DNA from: a bacterium HR28
Lineage (GTDB): Bacteria; Chloroflexota; Chloroflexia; Thermomicrobiales; Thermomicrobiaceae
Reading direction: 5' to 3'
Assembly: GCA_002898255.1 (NCBI GenBank)
Contig: BEIE01000006.1
Span: 49,251-113,250, forward strand
Length of the DNA stretch: 64,000 bases
Part shown: positions 5,411 through 55,076 of the stretch, piece by piece
Layout: each line of letters begins with the position of its first letter
How positions within the stretch are numbered: the first letter of the stretch is position 1
Made by a program: the position numbers and the translations under genes
Notes under the pieces: model-generated
Database searches by the model: none
What the model saw: only the letters and a program-made list of their open reading frames with translations
Told to the model about the DNA's origin: nothing

Positions 5411-6582
5411 CGTCCCGCTCGCTCCTTCCTGGTTCTTCGCAGCCAGAACCGGAAATGCGAGCGGCGAGGTGGCGGCCGGGATTTCCCGACCGGCCAAGGA
5501 AGGTTGGATCGTCCGGTGAACGGGATGTCGGCCCGGTACACCACGACGAAAATGCTCGACCCTTCCCCAATCAAAAGCTAACCCAATGCACGCAGCGGCC
5601 CGTCCTGCTTGCCCGCGTGCTGGTGAGCGATGGCCTGACCCAAAACTGAAACGAGCCAGACACTGCAGAAGATGCCGTGTCCGGCTTGTGTACCATGCTC
5701 ACGCTGCCAGGAGACACAATAATGGTTCCTGGAGAGGATGTCAAGGGGCATTCATTGCGGGATTCGATCCAGTGTGGAGCGCGAAGACAGTACGGCGGAT
5801 GACACACGGTTTCCAGAAGGGGACGGCTTTTTGCTGGATCGTTTGCGCCGGCGAGTTCCTTACCACTATCTCTGTTCTGCTCATTCGCAGCTCTTCGTGC
5901 CCCCTGGCTTGTCTCCTCACACTGGAACAACGGTGACGGAGACCGAATTCGAATTCGTGGGACCTGGACGGCTGCTGCTGTGCAGAACCAGCTCACTCTT
6001 GGTGCTACTGCCCGATGCGGGACGGTCGAGCCGAGTTGGCGTAGAGCGCGGATCCTCGCTGCGCCAAGATCGGTCTTGTTGATCCTCCTGCGATACCTTC
6101 GGGAGCAGGCGAGCTGCAGCTTGAGGCACCGCCTTTTACCGACCTGCCAGTGCTCCCGCAATTGCGATCTGGATGTTGGTAACAACTCAACACGCTCTTG
6201 CGGGGGTGCACACCTGGGTTGCGGAGAGGATCGGCATGACGATACCCCGTTCCCCGTGCTGAGCAGACAGAAGACCGGTTTCGAGAGCGGGTCATTCGCT
6301 TGGAGCAAGAGCGCGGAGGCAGTCCAGCATAGCTCGCCGTGACGGCGTTCTGATCGTTTTCAGGATTGCTGGAGCTGCGCCTGAAGCGCTCTGGGAAATA
6401 TTGGCGTGAGTGCTCGCCCTGGTCGTACTCCAGCGCAAGTCAAGCGTTGCTGGCCGGTTGTTCTCCCCTGGCACGTAGCAAATCTGTCAGGGAAGGGTTG
6501 ACAGCCCCTTACTGTAGCACTAGACTGTGCGCAGACGAGAGACGAAGTGTCGGATAGTGTCTGAAATATCGGACATACGGAA

Positions 6583-7419
6583 ATGCCACGACGCGTACCC
6601 GCAGTTGAACGAGCACTAGACATCCTCGAGCTCTTCTTGCGGTCGCCCCAGCCGGAGTCGCTTTCTGTGCCGGAGATTGCGCGAGCGCTGGATTTGCCGC
6701 GCAGTACGGCACATGAGCTCGTTGCCACACTCGTCGCTCGCCGTTACTTGCGGCCGATTGAGGGGAACCCACACCGCTACGCGCTAGATGTCCGTGTCTT
6801 CGAGCTCGGTAATGCCTATGCGGCTGGGCTGGATCTCGCGCGCGAAGGTCAGATCGTGGCGCGTCGGGTGGCGGCGCAATGTGACGAGACGGTGCACATC
6901 GCAGTGCTGGAGGGGACGGACGTCTTCTACATCGCCAAGGTGGACAGTACGAATGCACTGCGCCTTGTCTCAGCGATCGGTCGCAGACTACCGGCACACT
7001 GCACCGCGGTTGGCAAGATGTTGCTCTCCGGCCTGAGTGAAGAGGAGTTTGCCGAGCGGTTTGCCGGTGTGCGGGAGCTCCCGGGCATGACGCGAAACAG
7101 TCTACGTTCGGTGGATGCTCTACGGGCAGAGCTGGCACGGACGCGGGCGCGAGGGATCGCTTGGGACAACTGCGAATCCAACCCTGATGTCCGCTGTGTG
7201 GCGGCGCCGATCTACGACCATCGCGGCCGGATGGTGGCGGCGATGAGTATTTCGTTCCCGGTCGTGCGTGATACGCCGGAGCGTTTCTTGGAGCTTTCAC
7301 GCTTAGTCCGGGAGGGGGCGCAGGAACTCTCGCAGCGGCTTGGGTATCGAGAGGTTCCGCAGGGGACCTGGGAGCCAGAGTTGCCTCCGTGGCACTCGGC
7401 GCTCGTCGCTGACAGCTGA
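6583..7419 (+). CDS. IclR-family transcriptional regulator
   Basis: N-terminal wHTH (VERALDILELF...LSVPEIARALDLPRSTAHELVATL) followed by an IclR effector domain (HIAVLEG..VFYIAKVDS, GKMLLS, CVAAPIYDHRGRMVAAMSIS). Confidence 0.9.
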   Translation: MPRRVPAVERALDILELFLRSPQPESLSVPEIARALDLPRSTAHELVATLVARRYLRPIEGNPHRYALDVRVFELGNAYAAGLDLAREGQIVARRVAAQCDETVHIAVLEGTDVFYIAKVDSTNALRLVSAIGRRLPAHCTAVGKMLLSGLSEEEFAERFAGVRELPGMTRNSLRSVDALRAELARTRARGIAWDNCESNPDVRCVAAPIYDHRGRMVAAMSISFPVVRDTPERFLELSRLVREGAQELSQRLGYREVPQGTWEPELPPWHSALVADS

Positions 7420-7483
7420 GTCGTAGTGGAGGGAGGTGACGTTGGAGATCGGGCATCACGTCATCGGGCGATCTGGTGACTCG

Positions 7484-8629
7484 ATGGGCAAAGTATCGAC
7501 GAGTCGGGAGGAGATGGTCATGGATGAGCGGACGATGCGGAGACTCGTAACGCGGCGGCAGCTGCTGCGTTCGGTATTGGTTGGTGGTGCGGCACTCTCG
7601 CTTCTGAGTGCATGCGGGGGTGGCCAGGCCACGCCGACAGCCGCGCCAGCGGCGAGCCCGACGCCGGCTCGAGCCGCGACACCGACGGTGGCTGCAACGA
7701 CGCCGACGGCTGCTACTGCTGCGACACCGACGACTGCGGCTGCAGCCGGGCCGGTACCGACAGTTGCCCCGGGGACGAAGATCACGGTCGCGATGGTGCC
7801 GAAGCTCGTGCACCCGTTCTTTGAGGATGTTCGGAAGGGTGGCGAGCAGAAGGCCAAGGAACTCGGCGTCGACTTCCAGTGGGTGGCTCCGCAGCAGGCC
7901 GATCCAGCCCAGCAGGTCGCGATGATCGAGGACCTGATCCGCAAGAAGGTGCATGCCATCTCGATCTCGCCGAACGAGCCGAAGTCGGTCGAGCCGGTTA
8001 TCGCCGAGGGGATGAAGCAGGGCATTCTGATGATGACCTTCGACTCGGATTCCCCGAACAGCCAGCGTGTCATGTACATCGGCACTGATAACAAAGCGGC
8101 TGGCCGGACGATGGGCGAGACGATGGCCAAGCTTCTCAACGGAAAAGGGAAGGTCGGGATAATCACCGGCGGGCTTGGTGCGCTTAACCTGAATCAGCGT
8201 ATTGAGGGATTCAAGGAAGGGGTCGGACCGAACATCGAAGTCGTTGACATTCAGGCCACCGACGACGATCTCCAGAAGGGGCTCTCGGTCAGTGAGGCGA
8301 TGCTGCGGGCACATCCGGATCTCAATGGCATCGCCTGTGTGAGCGCAACAGGTGGGCCAACGCTTGCCCAAGTGCTCAAGTCGCCCGAGTTTCAGGATCG
8401 GATCGGGAAGCTGGTCATTGTCGCCTTTGACGATCTGGAGGAGACGAAGCGGGCGATTGACGAAGGAATTATCGCAGCGACGATGGTGCAGCGTCCGGTT
8501 CAGATGGGTGTGTTGACAGTGCAGTGGGCCTATGAGATCTTGACCGGCAAGGCGAAGCCACCGTTCCAGAACATCGACACGGGTGTTACAGTCGTAACGA
8601 AGGAGAATCTGAACAGCTACACGAAGTGA
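7484..8629 (+). CDS. sugar ABC transporter substrate-binding lipoprotein (RbsB/PBP1-like)
   Basis: Tat-like RR signal plus lipobox (MRRLVTRRQLLRSVLVGGAALSLLSAC), a long Ala/Thr/Pro linker, then a periplasmic-binding-protein type I fold (ITVAMVPKLVHPFFEDV...). Start is ambiguous between 7436 and 7508. Confidence 0.85.
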   Translation: MGKVSTSREEMVMDERTMRRLVTRRQLLRSVLVGGAALSLLSACGGGQATPTAAPAASPTPARAATPTVAATTPTAATAATPTTAAAAGPVPTVAPGTKITVAMVPKLVHPFFEDVRKGGEQKAKELGVDFQWVAPQQADPAQQVAMIEDLIRKKVHAISISPNEPKSVEPVIAEGMKQGILMMTFDSDSPNSQRVMYIGTDNKAAGRTMGETMAKLLNGKGKVGIITGGLGALNLNQRIEGFKEGVGPNIEVVDIQATDDDLQKGLSVSEAMLRAHPDLNGIACVSATGGPTLAQVLKSPEFQDRIGKLVIVAFDDLEETKRAIDEGIIAATMVQRPVQMGVLTVQWAYEILTGKAKPPFQNIDTGVTVVTKENLNSYTK

Positions 8630-8637
8630 CCACATGA

Positions 8638-18856: not shown

Positions 18857-20425
18857 TCATTCGAGGGCGATGGACAGCAGCGGAGCAGTTTGATGCCCCC
18901 AAAAGAGCTCAATCTGCAGGTGCGGCCAGCGCTCGGCAATAGCCTGCCGGACGGGCTCGATACGCTTGACGGTCTCCCCGATGACGATGGAGCACAGCTC
19001 GGCGCCCTCGGGATCGAGAGAGGACAGTGCTTGGAGTGCTGCTGCGGAGAGACTGGTCGTACGACCTGCGTCGTGGTCTCCCCCGTCACGACCGGTTGTA
19101 TTCCCCATAATATCGACCGTGCGCAGACGGGCGAGTACGGCCTGAATCTCTGGCAGTGTCTCGTCCAGGTCGCGTTCTGGGTCAAGTAAGGAAAGGGCGA
19201 CGAGCTGCGCCGCAAGTGACCGCACAGGCAATACCGCGAGTCGTGGATGAAGCGTGCGTGCGGCTTGCTGCGCCATCTCCGCGTCGCTGTCACTACCAGG
19301 AAGCACGACGATCTGCTCCACGGGGAGTTCGGCGAGGTGGGTCGTGAGCGAACTCGCTGACAGGGACTTTCGGTTCGTCGCGATGCCGTATGCCCCCAGC
19401 CGATGTGCCAAGGTGACGATCCCAGGAGCGGCTGAGAGGACAACAAGGATCGACTGCCGAGGCTCGGTGAGGGGAACTACCGCAGGCTCGCCACTGAAAC
19501 TGTCGATGATGATTGACCGTATCTGACCAACGCGACGCAGGAGCCCCTGTACCGTGTCCGGCATAGTGGTGTGTAAATGGACACGCAGGAGATCGCCGTC
19601 CCGGATGACCTCAATCGACTCTCCGTAGCGAGCGAGTTCCTGTGCGATCCTTTTGCCCGGAGTGCCATCGCAATACAGGAGCGCGTTCAGGCAATAGCCG
19701 GTTGTCGGCTCATCTCGTCGAGGAACTGGTTCCGATGGGACGGGGAGCGGTCGGAGCTCCGTCTCCTCACCGCAGGCCAATGCCGCCCAGGCGTCGAAGA
19801 TTACCGCGAGACCCTGTGCGCCTGAGTCAACCACACCGCGCTCGCGCAGAACCGTGAGGAGCTCGGGAGTCCGAGCGACCGCTGCGGCGGCGGCCCTCCG
19901 CACGGCCAGGAGCAGGTCCGCGAGTGTGCCCCCTGTCTCAGCGACGCGTACCGCTGTTTCGGCCACGGCACGCAGCACCGTGATCATAGTGCCCTCGACG
20001 GGATGAAGCAGCGCACGACGAGCGAGCGTATCGGCGCGAGTGAGGGCGTCGCTGAAGGCGAAGGCGTCCAGTACTGTACGTTCTCGCGTCGCCTCCGCGA
20101 AGGCGCGGAAAACCTGGCTCAAGATCACACCGGAATTCCCGTGTGCCGCGCGCAGGGCAGCTCGCGCGGCAGCCTCCGTGACTGCTGGCAGCCCTTCACC
20201 TGCCACGTTGCGTGCGGCGCGGAGTGCTGCTCGTGCAGTCAGGAGGAGGTTGGTGCCGGTGTCTCCATCGGCCACTGGAAAGACATTGAGCGCATCGAGG
20301 CTAGCAGCATGCTCGCCGAGGGCTGTAACTGCCGCATCCAGCGCAGCCAGAAAAGCTGCCTCATCCCATACGAGCGCAGGAGCCTGGCTGATCATCGTGG
20401 TTTCAATATGCTCTTGTTCGGACAT
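18857..20425 (-). CDS. fakA: DAK2-domain protein, YloV/FakA-like fatty-acid kinase subunit
   Basis: Dak phosphatase-domain motifs are present (LNVFPVADGDTGTNL, HGNSGVILSQVFRAF). Start is uncertain among 20488, 20425 and 20395. Confidence 0.8.
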   Translation of the reverse strand: MSEQEHIETTMISQAPALVWDEAAFLAALDAAVTALGEHAASLDALNVFPVADGDTGTNLLLTARAALRAARNVAGEGLPAVTEAAARAALRAAHGNSGVILSQVFRAFAEATRERTVLDAFAFSDALTRADTLARRALLHPVEGTMITVLRAVAETAVRVAETGGTLADLLLAVRRAAAAAVARTPELLTVLRERGVVDSGAQGLAVIFDAWAALACGEETELRPLPVPSEPVPRRDEPTTGYCLNALLYCDGTPGKRIAQELARYGESIEVIRDGDLLRVHLHTTMPDTVQGLLRRVGQIRSIIIDSFSGEPAVVPLTEPRQSILVVLSAAPGIVTLAHRLGAYGIATNRKSLSASSLTTHLAELPVEQIVVLPGSDSDAEMAQQAARTLHPRLAVLPVRSLAAQLVALSLLDPERDLDETLPEIQAVLARLRTVDIMGNTTGRDGGDHDAGRTTSLSAAALQALSSLDPEGAELCSIVIGETVKRIEPVRQAIAERWPHLQIELFWGHQTAPLLSIALE

Positions 20426-20541
20426 CGGCCGCTCCTGTTCCTCGAGCGGCTGAGTCAGGGAGAGTTCCTTCACGGCAGTTCCGAGCATTCACCGTGTCTC
20501 CTATACTATACATGTGCGTTCTTCGTAGATGTGGTGCCGAT

Positions 20542-21183
20542 ATGGACACGATTGTCCTGCTGGTCACCGGATTTCTGCTCGGTTCCATTCCGACGGCCCA
20601 GATCGCGGCATATCTCCTCGCAGGAATTGACCTTCGCGAACGTTTTCCGACGATCAGTGGATCGGGGGTGTACTACGCGGTGGCACGATGGGCCATCGTG
20701 CCTGTTGGGCTCGTCGATGTCACGAAGGGTGGACTCGCTGCGTACCTGCCGTACCAGTTTGGAGGAGGAACCGGGATGGCGGTCGCCTGCGGGCTGGCGG
20801 CTGTGATCGGGCACAACTGGTCTCCGTGGCTGGGGTTTCGCGGGGGACGCGGCCTGAGTCCGTTTATGGGGATGCTTCTGGTCGTGTTTCCGGCAGGAGT
20901 GCTTGTCCTCTTGGCAGCGCTTGCGGTTGGACGTCTGGTAGGTCGAACGCCTGTCCTGGCGCTCTTGGGGCTGGCAGTACTTCCTGGAGTCATCATTTTC
21001 AGTGGCGGGTCAGATGCTGCTCTACGCGGCAGCATTGGCATGCTCCTGATCACAGTCCTGAAGCGGCTGGAGGCGAACCGCCGCAGGCTGCCACGAGATC
21101 CAGCGCTCCGCCGCGAGGTGCTTTGGCGGCGCTTCTGGTACGACCGGGACGAGGAACAGTGGCCGCCGGAGGTGGAGGAGTAG
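20542..21183 (+). CDS. plsY: glycerol-3-phosphate acyltransferase PlsY
   Basis: GSIPTAQI..., DVTKGGLAAYL, and GHNWSPWLGFRGGRGLSPFMG motifs on a small polytopic membrane protein. Confidence 0.85.
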   Translation: MDTIVLLVTGFLLGSIPTAQIAAYLLAGIDLRERFPTISGSGVYYAVARWAIVPVGLVDVTKGGLAAYLPYQFGGGTGMAVACGLAAVIGHNWSPWLGFRGGRGLSPFMGMLLVVFPAGVLVLLAALAVGRLVGRTPVLALLGLAVLPGVIIFSGGSDAALRGSIGMLLITVLKRLEANRRRLPRDPALRREVLWRRFWYDRDEEQWPPEVEE

Positions 21184-21189
21184 TGCCGG

Positions 21190-22032
21190 ATGCTCAGCAT
21201 CGTCACCGATAGCGTCGCCTGCTTGCCCGCAGAGCTGGTCGAGCGGTACGGGATCCGAGTCGTTCCAGTACGCATCGTGCGAGGTGAGCGGGTCTACCGG
21301 GATGGGGTCGATGTTTCGGTTGAGGAAGCGTTCGAATGGCTTGCCGCGGGGGAGATTGTCACGACGTCGCAACCGGCGGTCGGTGAGTTCGTGGAGGTCT
21401 ACGAGACACTGAGTCGAACCGTGGAGGGAATTGTCTCGATTCATGTCTCGTCGGGGGTCACCGGCGTGTACCAGGCTGCTGTTGCTGCGGCGGGCATGGT
21501 GACTCGCGTGCCGATCACTGTGATCGACAGTGGTGCAGCGACGATGGCGGAGGGTTTCCTGGTTCTCGAGGCGGCGCGCTGTGCCGAGCGTGGTGCCGAT
21601 CTGCGTTCAGTTGTGCAGCGGGTTGAAGAGCTCCGCCCACGGCTGCGCTTCTTCGCCGTGCTGGAGACGGTGAGTTTTCTAGTGCGTAGCGGACGTGCGC
21701 CCTGGCTTGCCAAGCTCGCAGTCGATCTCTTACAGGTCAAGCCGATCCTCACCCTGCAGGGCGGTAAGATCGTGTCGCTCGAGCGAGTCCGCACTCGGAA
21801 GCGAGCCATTGACGCCATGCTGCGTCGCATGGAGCGCGACGTTGGTGACCGTCCGCTGCACGTCGCGGTGCTGCACGCCGGTACGCCTTCGGAGGCTGAG
21901 GCGTTGGCGCACGAGATCACGCAGCGTTTCCGAACGGTTGAGCAGTATGTGACCTCATTCAGTCCGGCTATGGCCCTGTACACCGGTCCGGGGTTGCTTG
22001 GCCTTGCCTACTATGCGGACGACGCGCCATGA
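21190..22032 (+). CDS. DegV-family fatty-acid-binding protein (FakB-like)
   Basis: MLSIVTDSVACLPAELVERYGIRVVPVRI...TTSQPAVGEF...IVSIHVSSGVTGVYQAA..., which is the typical DegV fold signature. Confidence 0.88.
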   Translation: MLSIVTDSVACLPAELVERYGIRVVPVRIVRGERVYRDGVDVSVEEAFEWLAAGEIVTTSQPAVGEFVEVYETLSRTVEGIVSIHVSSGVTGVYQAAVAAAGMVTRVPITVIDSGAATMAEGFLVLEAARCAERGADLRSVVQRVEELRPRLRFFAVLETVSFLVRSGRAPWLAKLAVDLLQVKPILTLQGGKIVSLERVRTRKRAIDAMLRRMERDVGDRPLHVAVLHAGTPSEAEALAHEITQRFRTVEQYVTSFSPAMALYTGPGLLGLAYYADDAP

Positions 22033-22249
22033 GCGACGCCCGCACCCGCGGCGATGAGGTCATGCTGGACGGACGCAGGTGACCAAGACAATGCCGGAGA
22101 GCGCATGTTGCCACGGAAGTGTTCCGTGGCAACATGCCGCAGAGTGGAGCAGATAAACAGAAAGTTGCCCCTCTTTGGGTTGCCCGGAGAGCCGCGAAGG
22201 CGAAGCACGAGACGGTCCTGCGCATCGGGGTGAAACGGCGTCGGTCACC

Positions 22250-22714
22250 TCATGGCGGCCATGGCGTGTCCGTGCCCGGACCGTAGCTGCTGTAGGTCTG
22301 GTCGATATAGGCGCGGATCTCCTGAAGTGGTCGCCCTTCAGCTGTGAGCCGCATCACGTCACGCGTGATGTCGATGCAGATCGCTCAGCCAAAGGTCATG
22401 CGGCCCAGCACGACCGAGCCGTCAGGACGGAACTCCTCAATTGAACAGTCCAGGACCGAGCGGTGTCCCTGCTCACCACAGCCGCAGTAGCAAGGGAAAT
22501 ACTGGAGGATTTCGGGGTGTGCAGCGGCGTAGCGGTATGCCTCTTGCGCTTCCGGAGAGGCTTGATAGAAGATCGGTGGCCAGCGATCCTGCGAAGGCCA
22601 AGCGACGAGTTCCGAATCACTAGAGGAAGATCCTCGTCCGCACGCAGCGAGGACGGGCAGCGTGGCGAGGCCGATCAGGAAGCGGCGTCGGGTTATGGTC
22701 CGGCGGTTCGTCAT
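22250..22714 (-). CDS. PCYCGC-motif lipoprotein, candidate selenoprotein (in-frame TGA at 22385-22387)
   Basis: Tat/lipobox signal (MTNRRTITRRRFLIGLATLPVLAAC) and the PCYCGCGEQGHRS motif. The track ORF stops at ...GRMTFG-TGA. The same frame continues for 44 codons as AICIDITRDVMRLTAEGRPLQEIRAYIDQTYSSYGPGTDTPWPP-TGA. In homologues as I recall them (...HG.xC.xCL.IA...G.S..EIR..ID..Y) a CxxC sits exactly here, so the TGA aligns with the first Cys. Confidence 0.65.
22352..22370 (-). promoter_or_regulatory. SECIS-like hairpin downstream of the in-frame UGA
   Basis: mRNA sense CAUCACG-CGUGA-CGUGAUG: a 7-bp perfect stem with a 5-nt loop, starting 14 nt after the UGA. Confidence 0.5.
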
Positions 22715-23137
22715 GCGGTGGCCTCCTGCGTAGAACCGACGCAGCAGTCAACTGCGTGCATTGTGCCATCAGGAGCTTGACGAGTGGTATCGGAGTTTTC
22801 CTGACGGGCTGCGTGTTCTCTCTTGTGTGCACGGCGGCGTGCTTGCTGCTGATTCACAATGCGGTACGGAGACACGGTCCAGGGAACCCTGACGAGCGGA
22901 GAGCCATTTCTGATGGAGATGACTGGTTTCGGTTGTAGTGGGTGGTGGACCGAAGGAGGGATAACTCGAACAACTCCAGTGAGAAATGCTGTGGAGCGGT
23001 GTGGAACATTGCGAGCTTCTCGGTGCCTTCCGGGGAGCAGTATGGTGAGCTCACCAGTGTGGCACCGTCGTGTTTTACCACCGTACGAGGTAGGAGATCC
23101 GACTCTTCCAATGGCGGCCACGGCGCACGAGTGCGTG

Positions 23138-23815
23138 TCAGCGGGCCAGATGGCGCCGGAGAAAGGCGAGTGTACGACGCCAGGCATCGATCGCTGCGTC
23201 AGGCCGATAGCTGGCACGCGTGTCATTGAAGAAGGCGTGTGGTGCGCCTGGATAGATATGGAGTTCAAACTCCTTGCCCGCGGCCTCAAGGGCGCGACGG
23301 AGCCGTTCCACCTCACTCGGCGGAATACCCTGATCTGCCTCGCCGTAGAGACCGAGCAGCGGGCAATGCAGTGATCGCACCCGTTCGATCGGATTCGGGT
23401 TACGCCCGTAGAAGACGACGGCAGCTCCGAAGAGATCACTCGCGCAGGCGGCGAGCAAGGAGAGTGCGCCACCCATGCAGAAGCCGACTACGCCGACTGT
23501 GGGGCCGCGGACATCGTCGCGGGCAAGGAGGAACCGGGCTGCCGCAACGATTTCTGCGACTGCGTGGTCGTACTCGAGTTCCATTGCCAGCTTACGCGCC
23601 TCGTCGGGCTCCGTCGCGATCTTGCCATGGTAGAGGTCGGGTGCGAGGGCGACGAAGCCCTCGGCAGCGAACCGGTCAGTGACGTCTTTGATATGGGGCT
23701 CCAGCCCCCACCACTCCTGAATAACGATGACACCTGGCGCGGGAGTTTGTGCCGGAAGCGCAAGGTAGCCGGGCGTCTCGATGCTGTCGCTCGGGAATAC
23801 AATCATCCTGCCCAT
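23138..23815 (-). CDS. dienelactone hydrolase family protein
   Basis: MGRMIVFPSDS...GVIVIQEWWGL...DLYHG... with the nucleophile motif GFCMGG. RBS AGGAGG lies before ATG 23813-23815. Confidence 0.88.
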   Translation of the reverse strand: MGRMIVFPSDSIETPGYLALPAQTPAPGVIVIQEWWGLEPHIKDVTDRFAAEGFVALAPDLYHGKIATEPDEARKLAMELEYDHAVAEIVAAARFLLARDDVRGPTVGVVGFCMGGALSLLAACASDLFGAAVVFYGRNPNPIERVRSLHCPLLGLYGEADQGIPPSEVERLRRALEAAGKEFELHIYPGAPHAFFNDTRASYRPDAAIDAWRRTLAFLRRHLAR

Positions 23816-29444: not shown

Positions 29445-31316
29445 TTATTCCTCCAGGATACAGGCGCAGGTGTTCACCTCACGCACCACGACCCGCTCGC
29501 CTGCAAAGACGTGCGTCGTGCAGGGCATGCAGGGGTCGAAGCTCCGGATTGCGCGCAGAATGTCGATAGCCTTGAAGTCCTCCGGGCTATTGAACTGCTC
29601 GATGATCGGCGTGTTCAGCACTGCCTCCTCGTACGGTCCCGGGTTTCCCCACGGATCACGCGGGGAGGCATTGATGGTCGACGGGGTGATGATCTGGTAG
29701 TTGGTCAGCACCCCGTTGTCCATCGTCAGGTGATGGGTCAGGTAACCGCGACCGGCACCCCAGAAGCCAACGCCGATCCGGAAGTCACGCGGCACAGTGA
29801 AGTCGCGGCTCACCGCCGTGTTGCCTTGCTTCATCAGCTCGTAGCCGATGAGTAGGTTGTTCAGGGCGACCAGAGCCGTGTACGCTTCGGCATACGCCCG
29901 CGCGCGGTTGCGCTCGATCGCGTTCCAGTCGGCTGGAATGTGCCACTCGAGGGTCATCTCGGGCAGGCGTCCCTTGGGTACCAGCATGCGCAGGCTCTGG
30001 CCAGTGGACTCGATGAAGGGGTTCTCCGGGATCTTCTTGGCCGCTGCCGTCGTCCACATGCGCACGTAGACGCCGGCCTCCATGACCGTGCGGTCCCAGC
30101 GCGGTGTGCAGGCCCAGGTGTACTTCTCCTTCCAGCTTCGGCCGGTCGGCTTGGGGCGAGTCTGCTTGTTCCAGGGATGGTAGGGGCTCAGCGGGTTACC
30201 GACCGGATCAGTCTTCAGCGGGTAGTCGTTCCAGTCATCGTAGTAGGAGTGTTCGACGAACTCTTCCAAACCAGCGTTGAGCAGATGGAGATTCGTCGTG
30301 ACGAGCTCGCCGTCGCGGACAACGCCCGGCGTATTCCATCGGCGCTCGCCCCAGTGGTCGGCGTGTCGGTAGTCGGCATCGTACGCCTCGTGGTGATCCC
30401 AGATTCCCGCATCGATCAGGTTCTTCGGACGGGCGCCGACCTGACGGAAGCGTGGCTCGATCTCGTAGAGGAAGTTGAAGACATCGTCCCACAGCAGCGC
30501 CATCTTCTTGGAGTAGTCAAGCAGGTCAAACAGACGCACCTGGTATTCATTGAGGACTCTCATCGAGATCGTTGTGCTGATCCCACCGGGCACAATTGTC
30601 TGCGGGTGGGGGTACTTGCCCCAAACCAGCACCGTCATCTCGCGTGCCTTGCGCGTCATCTCCAGGGCTTCGAGGTAGAGCGAACCAGTCAACGGGTTCA
30701 GCGCCGTCATGATCTCACCGATCGTCTTGAACCCGTGAACATCCGCGTTCGGGGCCAACGCGGTCTGGGCGCGCTCCCAGATCTCCGGGTTCGTCGCGCG
30801 GATCACCGTTTCGGAGTAGTCTGGTCCGGCGAGCAGGAAGAGGTGCAACGGATGGTCGTAGAGGAACTCAGCTGTCTGCCCCAGGTTGCGCACGACGATC
30901 CCCATCGGGGGCGGCGGTGTTCCGAAAGCCATCTCGATCGCCTCGGCTGAGCAGTTCGCGTGCACACCCCCGCACACGCCGCAAGCCCGGCTGCTGATGA
31001 AGATCGCATCGCGCGGATCGCGTCCCTTGAGGATCACCTCGTAGCCGCGGAATAGTGTCGCCATCGAGTGCGCATCGAGGACTTTGCGGTTCTCCAGATC
31101 CACGACGGCATGGAAAGCGAGTGCCCCCGCCACGCGAGTGACCGGATCGATGCTCACCTCGTGAATGTGGCCGTTGCGACGCAAGAGCTCCTCGATCCGC
31201 TCTTGTTGAGTCGCTACGGTCTTGGTCGAAGTGTAGGCATATGGGTCGCGAATATCGCTTCGCAGGCGGGCCCTGCCTGACTCGTCGAACTCGATCGGCA
31301 GATTCTTGAAGCACAT
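29445..31316 (-). CDS. hhyL: [NiFe]-hydrogenase large subunit, group 1h/5-like
   Basis: N-terminal RACGVCGGVH and C-terminal SFDPCMPCTTH Ni-Fe ligand motifs, followed by a short C-terminal extension. All four ligand Cys are ordinary Cys codons. Confidence 0.92.
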   Translation of the reverse strand: MCFKNLPIEFDESGRARLRSDIRDPYAYTSTKTVATQQERIEELLRRNGHIHEVSIDPVTRVAGALAFHAVVDLENRKVLDAHSMATLFRGYEVILKGRDPRDAIFISSRACGVCGGVHANCSAEAIEMAFGTPPPPMGIVVRNLGQTAEFLYDHPLHLFLLAGPDYSETVIRATNPEIWERAQTALAPNADVHGFKTIGEIMTALNPLTGSLYLEALEMTRKAREMTVLVWGKYPHPQTIVPGGISTTISMRVLNEYQVRLFDLLDYSKKMALLWDDVFNFLYEIEPRFRQVGARPKNLIDAGIWDHHEAYDADYRHADHWGERRWNTPGVVRDGELVTTNLHLLNAGLEEFVEHSYYDDWNDYPLKTDPVGNPLSPYHPWNKQTRPKPTGRSWKEKYTWACTPRWDRTVMEAGVYVRMWTTAAAKKIPENPFIESTGQSLRMLVPKGRLPEMTLEWHIPADWNAIERNRARAYAEAYTALVALNNLLIGYELMKQGNTAVSRDFTVPRDFRIGVGFWGAGRGYLTHHLTMDNGVLTNYQIITPSTINASPRDPWGNPGPYEEAVLNTPIIEQFNSPEDFKAIDILRAIRSFDPCMPCTTHVFAGERVVVREVNTCACILEE

Positions 31317-52225: not shown

Positions 52226-52726
52226 GTGGAAACGTTGCCGATCCAGGTAACAGTGAATAGCCGTACCTATACTGCCGAGGTCGAGCCTCGGTTGCTGCTC
52301 GTGCACTTCCTGCGCGACGTGCTGAATCTGACCGGAACGCACATCGGTTGCGATACGACGAGTTGCGGCGCTTGCACGGTGCTCTGGAACGGTCGGCCGG
52401 TAAAGTCTTGCACGGTCTTCGCGGTGCAGGTTGACGGTGGCGAAATCCTCACCGTCGAGGGTTTGGAGCGCGACGGACAGTTGCATCCGGTGCAAGAGGG
52501 CTTCTGGGAAGAGCATGGGCTGCAGTGTGGCTTCTGCACGCCCGGGATGATGATGACCGCTGTCGCACTACTCAACGAGAATCCGGATCCAACGGAAGAA
52601 GAGATCCGCAAGGCCATTTCCGGCAATCTCTGTCGGTGTACCGGGTACGTCAACATCGTCAAAGCCATCCAGTATGCAGCCCGGAAGCTGCGCGAGGGCG
52701 CGACCGTCCATGTGGGAGGAGCGTGA
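52226..52726 (+). CDS. coxS: aerobic CO dehydrogenase small ([2Fe-2S]) subunit
   Basis: Has [11 protein letters not shown] and [11 protein letters not shown] cluster motifs. Confidence 0.92.
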
Positions 52727-52730
52727 AGCA

Positions 52731-55076
52731 ATGACAGCGACAGCAGTTCGTGGGATCGGCGTTCCCGTTAAGCGCAAGGAAGATCCGCGCTTCATCCGGG
52801 GCAAGGGCACCTATGTGGACGATATCAAGCTGCCCGGCATGCTCTTCATGGATATCGTGAGGAGCCCGTACGCGCATGCCCGGATCAAGCGGATCGATGT
52901 CTCCAAAGCGTTAGCGATGCCGGGCGTCATTGACGTGATCACTGGCGAGGAGCTCGCTAAGGCGAACCTCGCTTGGATGCCGACGCTCATGGGTGACCGG
53001 CAAATGGTGCTGCCGACCGACCGGGTCGTGTACTACGCCCAGGAAGTGGCTGCGGTCATCGCGACCGATCGTTATACTGCGGCGGATGCCGTGCTGGCGG
53101 TCGAGGTGGAGTACGAGCCGCTTCCGCCGGTGCTCAACCCATTTGAGGCGTTGAAGCCTGATGCGCCGTTGGTTCGCCCGGATCGCGAGCAGAAGTCGAA
53201 CCATATCTGGCATTGGGAGGCCGGCGACAAAGAGAAGACGGATCGTGTCTTCCAAGAGGCGGAAGTTGTCGTCGCGCAGGATCTGTACATCCCGCGCATC
53301 CATGTGGCCTCCATCGAAACCTGTGGGTGTGTGGCGAACTACGATCCGGCGACCGATAAGTTGACGATCTGGATGACTTCGCAGGCACCGCATGCGCATC
53401 GCACCGTCTTTTCACTCGTCACCGGCATTCCGGAGCACAAGATCCGCATCATCTCGCCGGACATCGGCGGGGGATTCGGTGGGAAAGTGCCGGTCTATCC
53501 AGGGTATGTCATCGCCACTTATGCGACGTTGAAGCACAAGAAGCCAATCAAGTGGATCGAGGATCGCTCAGAAAACCTGCAGGCCGATTCCTTTGCGCGG
53601 GACTACCACATCCACGCCGAGCTCGCTGCGACCCGTGATGGGAAGATCCGTGGGTTGCGTGTCCACGTGGTGGCCGACCACGGCGCGTTCGATGCGGCGG
53701 CGAACCCCTCCCGTTTCCCGGCCGGTCTCTTCAGCGTCTGCACTGGGTCTTACGACATGGAGGCCGCACACATTCAGGTCGACGGGGTGTACACGACCAA
53801 GCCGCCCGGAGGCGTTGCCTACCGCTGCTCGTTCCGCGTGACGGAGGCGGTGCACACGATTGAACGGATGGTCGATATCTTGGCTGATGAGCTTGGCATG
53901 GATCCCGCCGAGATCCGTTTCAAGAACTTCATCCAGCCACACCAGTTCCCGTACAAGTCGCCGACCGGCTGGGAGTACGACAGCGGCAATTATCCGGCTG
54001 CGCTGCAGAAAGCGCTGGATATGATCGGGTACCAGGAGCTCCGGCGGGAACAGGCTGAGCGCCGTGCTCGCGGCGAGCTGATGGGAATCGGGATCTCGAC
54101 CTTTACCGAGATCGTCGGTGCCGGCCCATCGCATACATTCGACATTCTCGGCATCAAGATGTTTGACAGTGCCGAGATCCGGGTGCATCCGACCGGCGCC
54201 GTCATCGTGCGTATCGGTGTCCAGACTCAAGGGCAGGGTCACGAGACGACGTTCGCGCAGATTGTCGCCGAGGAGCTCGGGATTCCGGTTGAGTACATCA
54301 CTGTCGAGCACGGAGACACGGATACGGCGCCCTACGGATTAGGTACCTATGCCAGCCGGAGCACCCCGACGGCCGGTGCAGCGACAGCGGTGGCAGCACG
54401 CAAGATCCGCGAAAAGGCGCGACTCATCGCAGCGCATCTCCTCGAGGTCAGCCCGGATGACCTGGAATGGAAGGACTACGCCTTCCGGGTCAAGGGTGCC
54501 CCCGACCGCTACAAGACAATGCAGGAGATCGCTTTTGCAGCCTATACCAACTTCCCGTTGGGTCTTGAGCCGGGTCTCGAGGCGGAGTGCTACTATGATC
54601 CGCCCAATCTGACGTTCCCCTTTGGTGCCTATGTCTGCGTCGTGGACATTGACCGCGGGACAGGACAAGTCAAGATTCGTGAGTTCCTCGCCGTCGATGA
54701 CTGCGGGACAATCATCAACCCGATGATTGTCGAAGGGCAGATTCATGGTGGGCTGACGATGGGTATGGCGCCAGCGCTCTTCGAGGAGATTGTCTACGAC
54801 GAGAACGGGACGATGCTCACCGGTACCTTTATGGACTACCTCCTGCCGACGGCGGTGGAGACGCCGCACTGGAAGACGGCAAAGACTGTCACGCCCTCAC
54901 CGCATCACCCGTTGGGGGCGAAGGGCGTTGGTGAGAGTCCGACGATTGGCGCGCCGCCGGCCATCGTCAACGCTGTCGTCGATGCACTGAGCCATCTGGG
55001 CGTGCGGCACATCGATATCCCGATCACGCCGGCGAAGGTCTACCGTATCCTCCAGGAAAAGGGCGTGGCGGAGTAA
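52731..55076 (+). CDS. coxL: aerobic CO dehydrogenase large (Mo-Cu) subunit, form I
   Basis: ATG at 52731. The active-site loop VAYRCSFR is present (form-I signature AYxCSFR), in a molybdopterin-binding aldehyde-oxidase/xanthine-dehydrogenase fold. Confidence 0.92.
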   Translation: MTATAVRGIGVPVKRKEDPRFIRGKGTYVDDIKLPGMLFMDIVRSPYAHARIKRIDVSKALAMPGVIDVITGEELAKANLAWMPTLMGDRQMVLPTDRVVYYAQEVAAVIATDRYTAADAVLAVEVEYEPLPPVLNPFEALKPDAPLVRPDREQKSNHIWHWEAGDKEKTDRVFQEAEVVVAQDLYIPRIHVASIETCGCVANYDPATDKLTIWMTSQAPHAHRTVFSLVTGIPEHKIRIISPDIGGGFGGKVPVYPGYVIATYATLKHKKPIKWIEDRSENLQADSFARDYHIHAELAATRDGKIRGLRVHVVADHGAFDAAANPSRFPAGLFSVCTGSYDMEAAHIQVDGVYTTKPPGGVAYRCSFRVTEAVHTIERMVDILADELGMDPAEIRFKNFIQPHQFPYKSPTGWEYDSGNYPAALQKALDMIGYQELRREQAERRARGELMGIGISTFTEIVGAGPSHTFDILGIKMFDSAEIRVHPTGAVIVRIGVQTQGQGHETTFAQIVAEELGIPVEYITVEHGDTDTAPYGLGTYASRSTPTAGAATAVAARKIREKARLIAAHLLEVSPDDLEWKDYAFRVKGAPDRYKTMQEIAFAAYTNFPLGLEPGLEAECYYDPPNLTFPFGAYVCVVDIDRGTGQVKIREFLAVDDCGTIINPMIVEGQIHGGLTMGMAPALFEEIVYDENGTMLTGTFMDYLLPTAVETPHWKTAKTVTPSPHHPLGAKGVGESPTIGAPPAIVNAVVDALSHLGVRHIDIPITPAKVYRILQEKGVAE

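Follow-up and report, generated by a model that had tools for sequence, protein, structure and literature searches.

In a 64,000-nucleotide stretch of the genome of bacterium HR28 (contig BEIE01000006.1, positions 49,251 to 113,250; hereinafter the window), the gene of a PCYCGC-motif lipoprotein very probably encodes a selenoprotein, in which an in-frame UGA at 22387-22385 is read as selenocysteine (Sec). The minus strand from 22714 to 22250 is a single open frame of 154 codons, interrupted in frame by this TGA. Specifically, the N-terminus of the protein, MTNRRTITRRRFLIGLATLPVLAAC, carries a twin-arginine motif followed by a LAAC lipobox, and from the ATG the frame reads MTNRRTITRRRFLIGLATLPVLAACGRG...FPCYCGCGEQGH...GRMTFG up to the TGA. 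The residues A-I-C follow directly, giving U-A-I-C, and the 44 codons 3' of the TGA read AICIDITRDVMRLTAEGRPLQEIRAYIDQTYSSYGPGTDTPWPP. The three Cys codons of the PCYCGC motif are all ordinary (TGC, TGC, TGT). A first-pass annotation of the window had pointed to this gene as a PCYCGC lipoprotein with UGA at the first Cys of its distal CxxC; the coordinates, motifs and post-TGA peptide that it gave are exact on re-reading of the sequence. The features of the gene and its surroundings are as follows.

22250 to 22714, minus strand: complete gene of the predicted selenoprotein, 153 sense codons including UGA for Sec110, plus the final stop (translation; 95.3 bits against PF13798)
22722 to 22727, minus strand: Shine-Dalgarno sequence AGGAGG, 7 nt 5' of the ATG (direct sequence reading)
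22714-22712, minus strand: start codon ATG (sequence)
22640 to 22714, minus strand: predicted signal peptide, residues 1-25, with T-R-R-R-F-L (8-13) and the lipobox L-A-A-C (22-25) (sequence)
22478 to 22495, minus strand: PCYCGC motif, residues 74-79 (invariant alignment columns)
22385 to 22387, minus strand: in-frame UGA, predicted Sec110, first position of U-A-I-C (codon column comparison)
22376 to 22378, minus strand: Cys113, UxxC partner of Sec (near-invariant in full-length homologues)
22352 to 22370, minus strand: hairpin of the selenocysteine insertion sequence (SECIS) type, within the codons for I-T-R-D-V-M (pairing, covariation)
22253 to 22384, minus strand: post-UGA coding tail of 44 codons, with two predicted helices in the model of a homologue (PF13798, dN/dS)
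22252-22250, minus strand: final stop, a second TGA (sequence)
22103 to 22137, no strand assigned: long perfect hairpin separating the DegV and PCYCGC genes, which are convergent (sequence)

The tail behind the UGA belongs to the protein family. For searches with hidden Markov models, the 154-residue read-through protein was used with Cys put in place of the TGA codon. Pfam PF13798 (PCYCGC; profile length 153, gathering score 25 bits) matches it with 95.3 bits over profile positions 39-153. The 109-residue part that precedes the UGA scores 51.7 bits and extends no further than profile position 101; by itself, the 44-residue tail obtains 31.6 bits over profile positions 111-153, above the gathering score, which bears out the claim of the first-pass annotation that the tail matches the family C-terminus. 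NCBIfam NF041379 (OS_HP4_CYCXC, 'CYCXC family (seleno)protein'), an equivalog model of 90 positions with a cut-off of 90 bits, also aligns with the read-through protein, with 61.1 bits (E = 8e-17) over model positions 12-89. It is matched by all 12 members of the Thermomicrobiales-type clade, as truncated pieces only, the 109-residue piece from the window scoring about 41 bits.

A protein database search returned 57 relatives. Fourteen homologues of 105-137 residues all terminate at '...FG', one residue ahead of the Cys in G-C-x-x-C, and full-length relatives (142-213 residues) have G-C-x-x-C exactly where these short homologues end. Homologues have Cys at the very column of the UGA. The column pattern at the distal motif is G-[C/U]-x-[ILV]-C-[VI]-D-I-[TA]-[RQ]-D; the Firmicutes consensus that the first-pass annotation gave for it, 'C.xCL.IA', is not literally reproduced. 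C75, C77, C79, H84, C90, Sec/Cys110 and C113 are invariant or near-invariant in the alignments, with P74-C79, H84 and C90 on invariant columns. The residue at position −4 from Sec/Cys is His in most of the family (H-A-x-G-C/U) and Met in the Thermomicrobiales-type clade (M-T/S/G-F-G/T-U). In the AlphaFold model of a Cys homologue (P0009, 53% identical), the mean predicted local distance difference test score (pLDDT) is 88.6, and about 98 over the domain. Besides other helices and a small hairpin, the model has two long helices at the C-terminus, which start at the CxxC; the segment homologous to the tail has a pLDDT of about 97-99 for the most part and about 92-95 at its C-terminal end.

Comparison of the codons at the UGA column reveals a Sec/Cys pairing. 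A genome scan with one genome per species, with the alignment of the Sec clade as the only query, yielded 53 loci. The DNA at the column reads TGA in 25 of these, TGT or TGC in 26, and CGA in one (L009). TGA also stands at the column in the window and in Thermomicrobium roseum, so that all 27 of the 27 stop-containing sequences have TGA; neither TAA nor TAG occurs at the column among the 53 loci, the window and T. roseum. Because only 31 of 53 of these genes have TGA as their true terminator (TAA or TAG in the other 22), the exclusive use of TGA at the column is not due to chance. The frame is open and conserved 3' of every TGA. TGA forms occur in Thermomicrobium (L001-L007), other Thermomicrobiales, unclassified Chloroflexota, Anaerolineae, Caldilineaceae, Ardenticatenia and Chloroflexia, and further in Thermaerobacter (L010), Gemmatimonadota (L021) and Methylomirabilota (L031, L036). 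The syntenic orthologue on the megaplasmid of T. roseum DSM 5159 (NC_011961.1; gene order DAK2, PlsY, DegV, PCYCGC) has the same TGA and tail. RefSeq annotates it as the 105-residue protein WP_012642643.1, 'PCYCGC motif-containing (lipo)protein', which ends at the Sec codon; this stump covers 8132-8449 of locus L054, i.e. 573004-573321 of NC_011961.1, and the true gene is about 140 nt longer.

In a rough neighbour-joining tree, Sec and Cys forms are intermixed, with at least six switches between them. Since the hairpin described below is the same everywhere, the simplest history is that the Sec form arose once and was then replaced by Cys repeatedly. One replacement is evidently very recent: three Caldilineaceae proteins are near-identical, two with TGA at the column (L015, L018) and one with TGT (L016), and the last keeps the complete hairpin. 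In Chloroflexi bacterium isolate 7 (L009, ~6318; CADDYW010000131.1), Arg (CGA) occupies the Sec column, the hairpin is fully intact, and the family motif is PCCCGC; either TGA mutated to CGA very recently, or the assembly or a base call is wrong.

A SECIS-type hairpin follows the UGA. It starts 14 nt after the UGA and consists of a 5' arm CAUCACG (22370-22364), a loop CGUGA (22363-22359) and a 3' arm CGUGAUG (22358-22352), i.e. a 7-bp stem with a 5-nt loop in which G is the second base, at a UGA-to-loop distance of 21 nt. These dimensions fit the ranges used by bSECISearch (UGA-to-loop 16-37 nt, stem 4-16 bp, loop 3-14 nt). The loop is always C-G-(U/G)-G-A. At least six contiguous pairs counted from the loop are present in 24 of 26 Sec forms and in 3 of 26 Cys forms, i.e. 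the stem is lost once the codon is Cys. Specifically, in two Cys forms with the identical ITRDVM peptide (L027, L028), ACC, GUC or similar codons disrupt the stem. Changes in the Sec forms preserve pairing: an A-U pair is compensated to G-C in L010 and L032, where the peptide is IARDAM, and further pair changes occur in L012, L013 and L017. In the 26-sequence alignment, 97.3% of cells pair and three of the seven pairs are altered on both sides; none of 500 shuffles reached a covariation score as high as that observed, and shifted registers give only 4-66% pairing. The hairpin alone has a folding energy of −7.7 kcal/mol.

The hairpin resembles bacterial SECIS elements of the E. coli fdhF/fdnG type in being a coding-region stem-loop soon after the UGA with G as the second loop base. 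It differs from them in lacking a sequence relationship to fdhF and an identified bulged U, and in having no Rfam match; binding of SelB to it is putative.

Selection on the tail was estimated from nine Thermomicrobium sequences. The ratio dN/dS is 0.04 for the 72 codons before the UGA (dS 1.80) and 0.145 for the 43 codons behind it (dS 0.87). When the first 12 codons of the tail are left out, dN/dS is 0.11 and dS rises to 1.57; in those 12 codons, which lie over the hairpin, dS is 0.19, i.e. synonymous change is suppressed. These values indicate that the tail is translated and under purifying selection, and not drifting, as the first-pass annotation had argued, and that the stretch directly after the UGA is under a second, non-coding constraint.

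The continuity of the frame, the family membership of both parts of the protein, the Sec/Cys pairing, the covarying UGA-specific hairpin and the selection on the tail directly support the selenoprotein reading. In the mechanism that we propose, selenocysteine would be inserted at the UGA (22387-22385) of a 153-residue PF13798 protein, and the 7-bp stem with its CGUGA loop, 14 nt 3' of the UGA, would recruit SelB carrying Sec-tRNA. The resulting U-A-I-C, probably a redox or metal-binding motif, would take the place of the family CxxC. The precursor would be exported by means of its twin-arginine-type signal and lipid-anchored at the Cys of LAAC on the outer face of the membrane.

The signal peptide makes export plausible. 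Its T-R-R-R-F-L-I compares with the S/T-R-R-x-F-L-K type of motif of the twin-arginine translocation (Tat) pathway and is followed by a hydrophobic stretch and L22-A23-A24-C25, which conforms to the lipobox pattern [LVI][ASTVI][GAS]C. Among the 12 clade members, R9, R10 and G15 do not vary and A24 and C25 hardly vary, and the lipobox Cys is near-invariant across the family. Most Cys-type relatives have lipoprotein signals without the two Arg residues. Given the twin-arginine-type signal peptide and the LAAC lipobox, the mature protein is most likely lipid-anchored outside the cytoplasm, on the outer membrane face. The lipobox part of the Tat/lipobox targeting put forward in the first-pass annotation thus stands; the Tat part is only suggestive, because the Tat model TIGR01409 gives 14.9-15.4 bits where its cut-off is 16.7 bits, which counts against Tat export, and matches 4 of the 12 clade members at E<=0.1. 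No Tat-signal family is among the matches in the Pfam search of the protein. Tat export of the PCYCGC selenoprotein is nevertheless plausible. Such export is no puzzle of handling, as had been supposed: selenoproteins exported by Tat include the E. coli formate dehydrogenase-N subunit FdnG and periplasmic [NiFeSe] hydrogenases, of which that of Desulfovibrio vulgaris is lipidated. The PCYCGC protein would share with them Sec decoding and a twin-arginine signal, and with the hydrogenase also a lipid anchor. Unlike those large cofactor enzymes, it has about 130 mature residues and no known cofactor.

Published literature gives no function for the PCYCGC family (PMC13068155). The gene context outside Thermomicrobiales suggests one. 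There, Sec and Cys forms alike head an operon that continues with a CuA-type cupredoxin, a NapH/MauN-like polyferredoxin and a cupredoxin-cytochrome c fusion (L014, L015, L018, L021, L022, L025, L028-L030, L032-L035, L039-L043, L047, L049, L058-L060). The cupredoxin has its best similarity to the CuA domains of NosZ and CoxB, and a DUF2085 protein and a small hypothetical protein are often encoded near the operon. At L058, the PCYCGC gene adjoins a copper-translocating P1B-ATPase (TIGR01511, 597 bits), a two-component system and an HMA protein. In Methylomirabilota, a cytochrome c gene and, behind it, that of the oxidase assembly factor Caa3_CtaG lie 3' of the Sec-form PCYCGC gene of L031 (3543-5071), and Caa3_CtaG was confirmed 3' of the Sec-form gene of L036 as well (7165-8037). 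No description of the operon module with CuA proteins was found in the literature searched.

From these neighbours in other phyla, the invariant Cys3-His-Cys cluster and the His-to-Met swap at −4, a copper role can be proposed, namely that of a thiol/selenol copper chaperone or reductase that matures the copper centres of respiratory proteins outside the cytoplasm. This assignment is the weakest link of the interpretation, and we regard it as close to an even call. Its broader form is more tentative: PCYCGC proteins may be uncharacterised copper-centre maturation factors with a fold of their own, serving CuA cupredoxins and haem-copper oxidases as chaperones or reductases of Cu(I), with selenol in place of thiol in many Chloroflexota, Methylomirabilota and Gemmatimonadota, and with Tat export and a Met in place of the His ligand in the Thermomicrobiales branch. 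Such proteins would resemble Sco1/SenC, TlpA and PCuAC in their mode of action only, being membrane-anchored outside the cytoplasm with a CxxC-type motif and His/Met; the PCYCGC genes of other phyla also resemble them in lying beside CuA cupredoxin, CtaG and copper-ATPase genes. They differ from them in having no sequence or fold relation and no thioredoxin fold, and their copper binding is only putative.

Two observations tell against the copper assignment. The copper-related neighbours are not present in the 64-kb window, so the functional inference is carried over from distant relatives. A Foldseek search with the P0009 model against the PDB gave no match at E<=0.001, i.e. the fold is without a solved relative. 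The protein could instead be a general thiol-disulfide oxidoreductase or a mercury or heavy-metal binder outside the cytoplasm with no specific link to copper centres, an account that concerns function only, is compatible with the selenoprotein reading, and has an appreciable though less than even chance of being correct. In selenoprotein tables, UxxC typifies thiol oxidoreductases as well as metal binders of the MerP/HMA type; a DsbA-like thioredoxin gene lies directly upstream of the PCYCGC gene in L011; no copper gene is near in the window; and a Parageobacillus homologue adjoins an Fe3+-binding protein (PMC13068155). Against this, the commonest conserved neighbours are CuA-type cupredoxins, cytochrome c and CtaG (in Anaerolineae, Caldilineae, Chloroflexia, Gemmatimonadota and Methylomirabilota), and the His/Met alternation at −4 would fit Cu(I) ligation.

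The identity of the residue at the UGA is much firmer than the function, and the points that weigh against Sec are the following. The fold of the single sequence is unexceptional (z = −0.85), a value that is uninformative at such G+C. The hairpin has a pair probability of only about 0.36 in the window sequence because a register-shifted fold competes; the comparative data decide in favour of the 7-bp stem over that register. Part of the conservation of the hairpin is due to coding, because it lies inside a conserved peptide. A search of the whole window against Rfam found tRNA-Lys only and no match to a SECIS family. The NF041379 score of 61 bits stays below the cut-off of 90, i.e. the protein is a homologue that falls outside NCBI's definition of the equivalog.

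The remaining points concern the decoding machinery. The 64-kb window contains no sel gene and no tRNA-Sec (tRNA-Lys only), tblastn with E. coli SelA, SelB and SelD gave no match in the window and all fetched loci, and SelA and SelD are both absent from the T. roseum megaplasmid in a search with a chimeric bait query. For the genus, the machinery is attested by a literature table only: T. roseum DSM 5159 is listed as SelD+, SelA+ and SelB+ (Peng et al. 2016, Table S1, PMC5029168). Table S2 of the same study lists 5 selenoprotein genes for T. roseum and 4-5 for Thermaerobacter species. The Sec trait is thus attested in the genus Thermomicrobium, presumably on the chromosome. Together with the family match of the tail, Cys in homologues, purifying selection and the hairpin of the TGA forms, this listing supports the Sec reading of the first-pass annotation.

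Two readings do without Sec. In the first, the UGA is read through by near-cognate suppression (as Trp, Cys or Arg) or by a lineage-wide reassignment of UGA. We infer selenium insertion, as we do the export route and the function, and the CGA of L009 with its intact hairpin suggests that a non-Sec residue may be tolerated. Reassignment is excluded because TGA still works as the terminal stop codon of this gene and its orthologues. The hairpin, for its part, matches a bacterial SECIS in position and loop, shows covariation, and disappears once the codon is Cys; the column is Cys in all other homologues, the classic Sec/Cys signature; and SelA, SelB and SelD are reported for T. roseum. Read-through without Sec is therefore very unlikely. 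The second, in which the TGA is a true stop that yields a 109-residue precursor and the 44 downstream codons are an untranslated relic of a once longer gene, has on its side the 105-residue RefSeq annotation in T. roseum, the habit of every gene caller in the protein database to end there and the window without Sec machinery, but it is hardly credible given a tail with dN/dS of 0.11-0.15 at near-saturated synonymous sites in nine Thermomicrobium sequences, in frame and stop-free across several phyla and passing the Pfam threshold alone, a column stop that is TGA in 27 of 27 cases, and a truncated protein from which two conserved helices and the distal half of the Cys cluster would be missing.

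The selenoprotein reading places the gene in a family in which Sec is already catalogued, so the fresh discovery implied by the first-pass annotation does not hold. Sec at the UxxC of the PCYCGC family is known from the name of NF041379 and from review listings: a 2022 review lists 'Hypothetical protein OS_HP4, UxxC' and credits it to the Olavius symbiont study (PMC9312934), and a table in a 2026 review gives PF13798 with UxxC selenocysteine (PMC13188914). The name OS_HP4 is absent from the GOS paper and from the main text of the Olavius paper; its link to PF13798 comes from the NCBIfam name and PMC13188914.

The window protein is homologous to NF041379/OS_HP4 across the CYCxC cluster and the UxxC, with Sec likewise first in the distal CxxC. 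It differs in its length (154 residues against a 90-position model), in its twin-arginine and lipobox signal and a linker of about 30 residues, and in having Met for His at −4. With PF13798, a DUF of mostly Firmicutes and Chloroflexota lipoproteins, it shares a full-length, above-threshold domain match, PCYCGC, His84, Cys90 and the distal CxxC column; most PF13798 members, in contrast, have Cys at the column and a Sec-pathway-type lipoprotein signal without the twin Arg, and the Pfam entry assigns no function.

What seems new is the Thermomicrobiales subclade with its twin-arginine signal, lipobox and His-to-Met change, the systematic truncation of this subclade in RefSeq and other gene calls, and its linkage to CuA proteins in an operon outside this branch. 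Truncation at the UGA affects WP_012642643.1 and at least 14 database clusters, which so lose one third of the domain and half of the Cys/Sec cluster. Because NF041379 scores below its cut-off for the clade, this annotation error will persist until the model is widened. The biological gain is modest: an aerobic thermophile lineage and a probable Tat-lipoprotein form are added to a catalogued selenoprotein family. The loci also make up a very clean comparative data set for SECIS elements, with the same hairpin in several phyla and at least six Sec/Cys switches, and the operon context offers a first testable idea for the function of the PCYCGC family.

In the window, the PCYCGC gene is solitary. 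It is convergent with DegV and preceded by a 423-nt gap (22715-23137), beyond which lies a dienelactone-hydrolase gene. The gap has no sigma-70-like promoter match and no Rfam match, and a consensus scan of 22000-23200 for promoters and terminators found none. The region equivalent to the gap is about 1 kb long in T. roseum; in L055, a 234-residue open reading frame (ORF) without a Pfam match overlaps the start of the gene. The hairpin at 22103-22137 has 15-16 bp (GCATGTTGCCACGGAA...TCCGTGGCAACATGC), is followed by no U-run, and was not called by the terminator scan. Positioned 3' of the second TGA rather than the first, it may terminate transcription in both directions.

A screen of the window for further in-frame UGA candidates gave 87 matches, among which the PCYCGC gene alone is credible and the others are noise. 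A 708-residue ORF at 6509-8635 on the minus strand, without a Pfam match, overlaps two long ORFs of the plus strand (6583-7419 and 7436-8629) and probably is a shadow ORF arising from the high G+C of the DNA. The window also encodes a [NiFe] hydrogenase large subunit and a CoxL/xanthine-dehydrogenase-type molybdenum enzyme. The nearest strain is Thermomicrobium CFH 73360 (L001), with 94% protein identity. Synteny links the window to the T. roseum megaplasmid through DAK2/FakA-like, PlsY and DegV genes; these and the two enzyme genes lie in the regions 18857-22032, 29445-31316 and 52674-55076. On account of this synteny and its gene content, the window appears to derive from the second replicon of a Thermomicrobium species.

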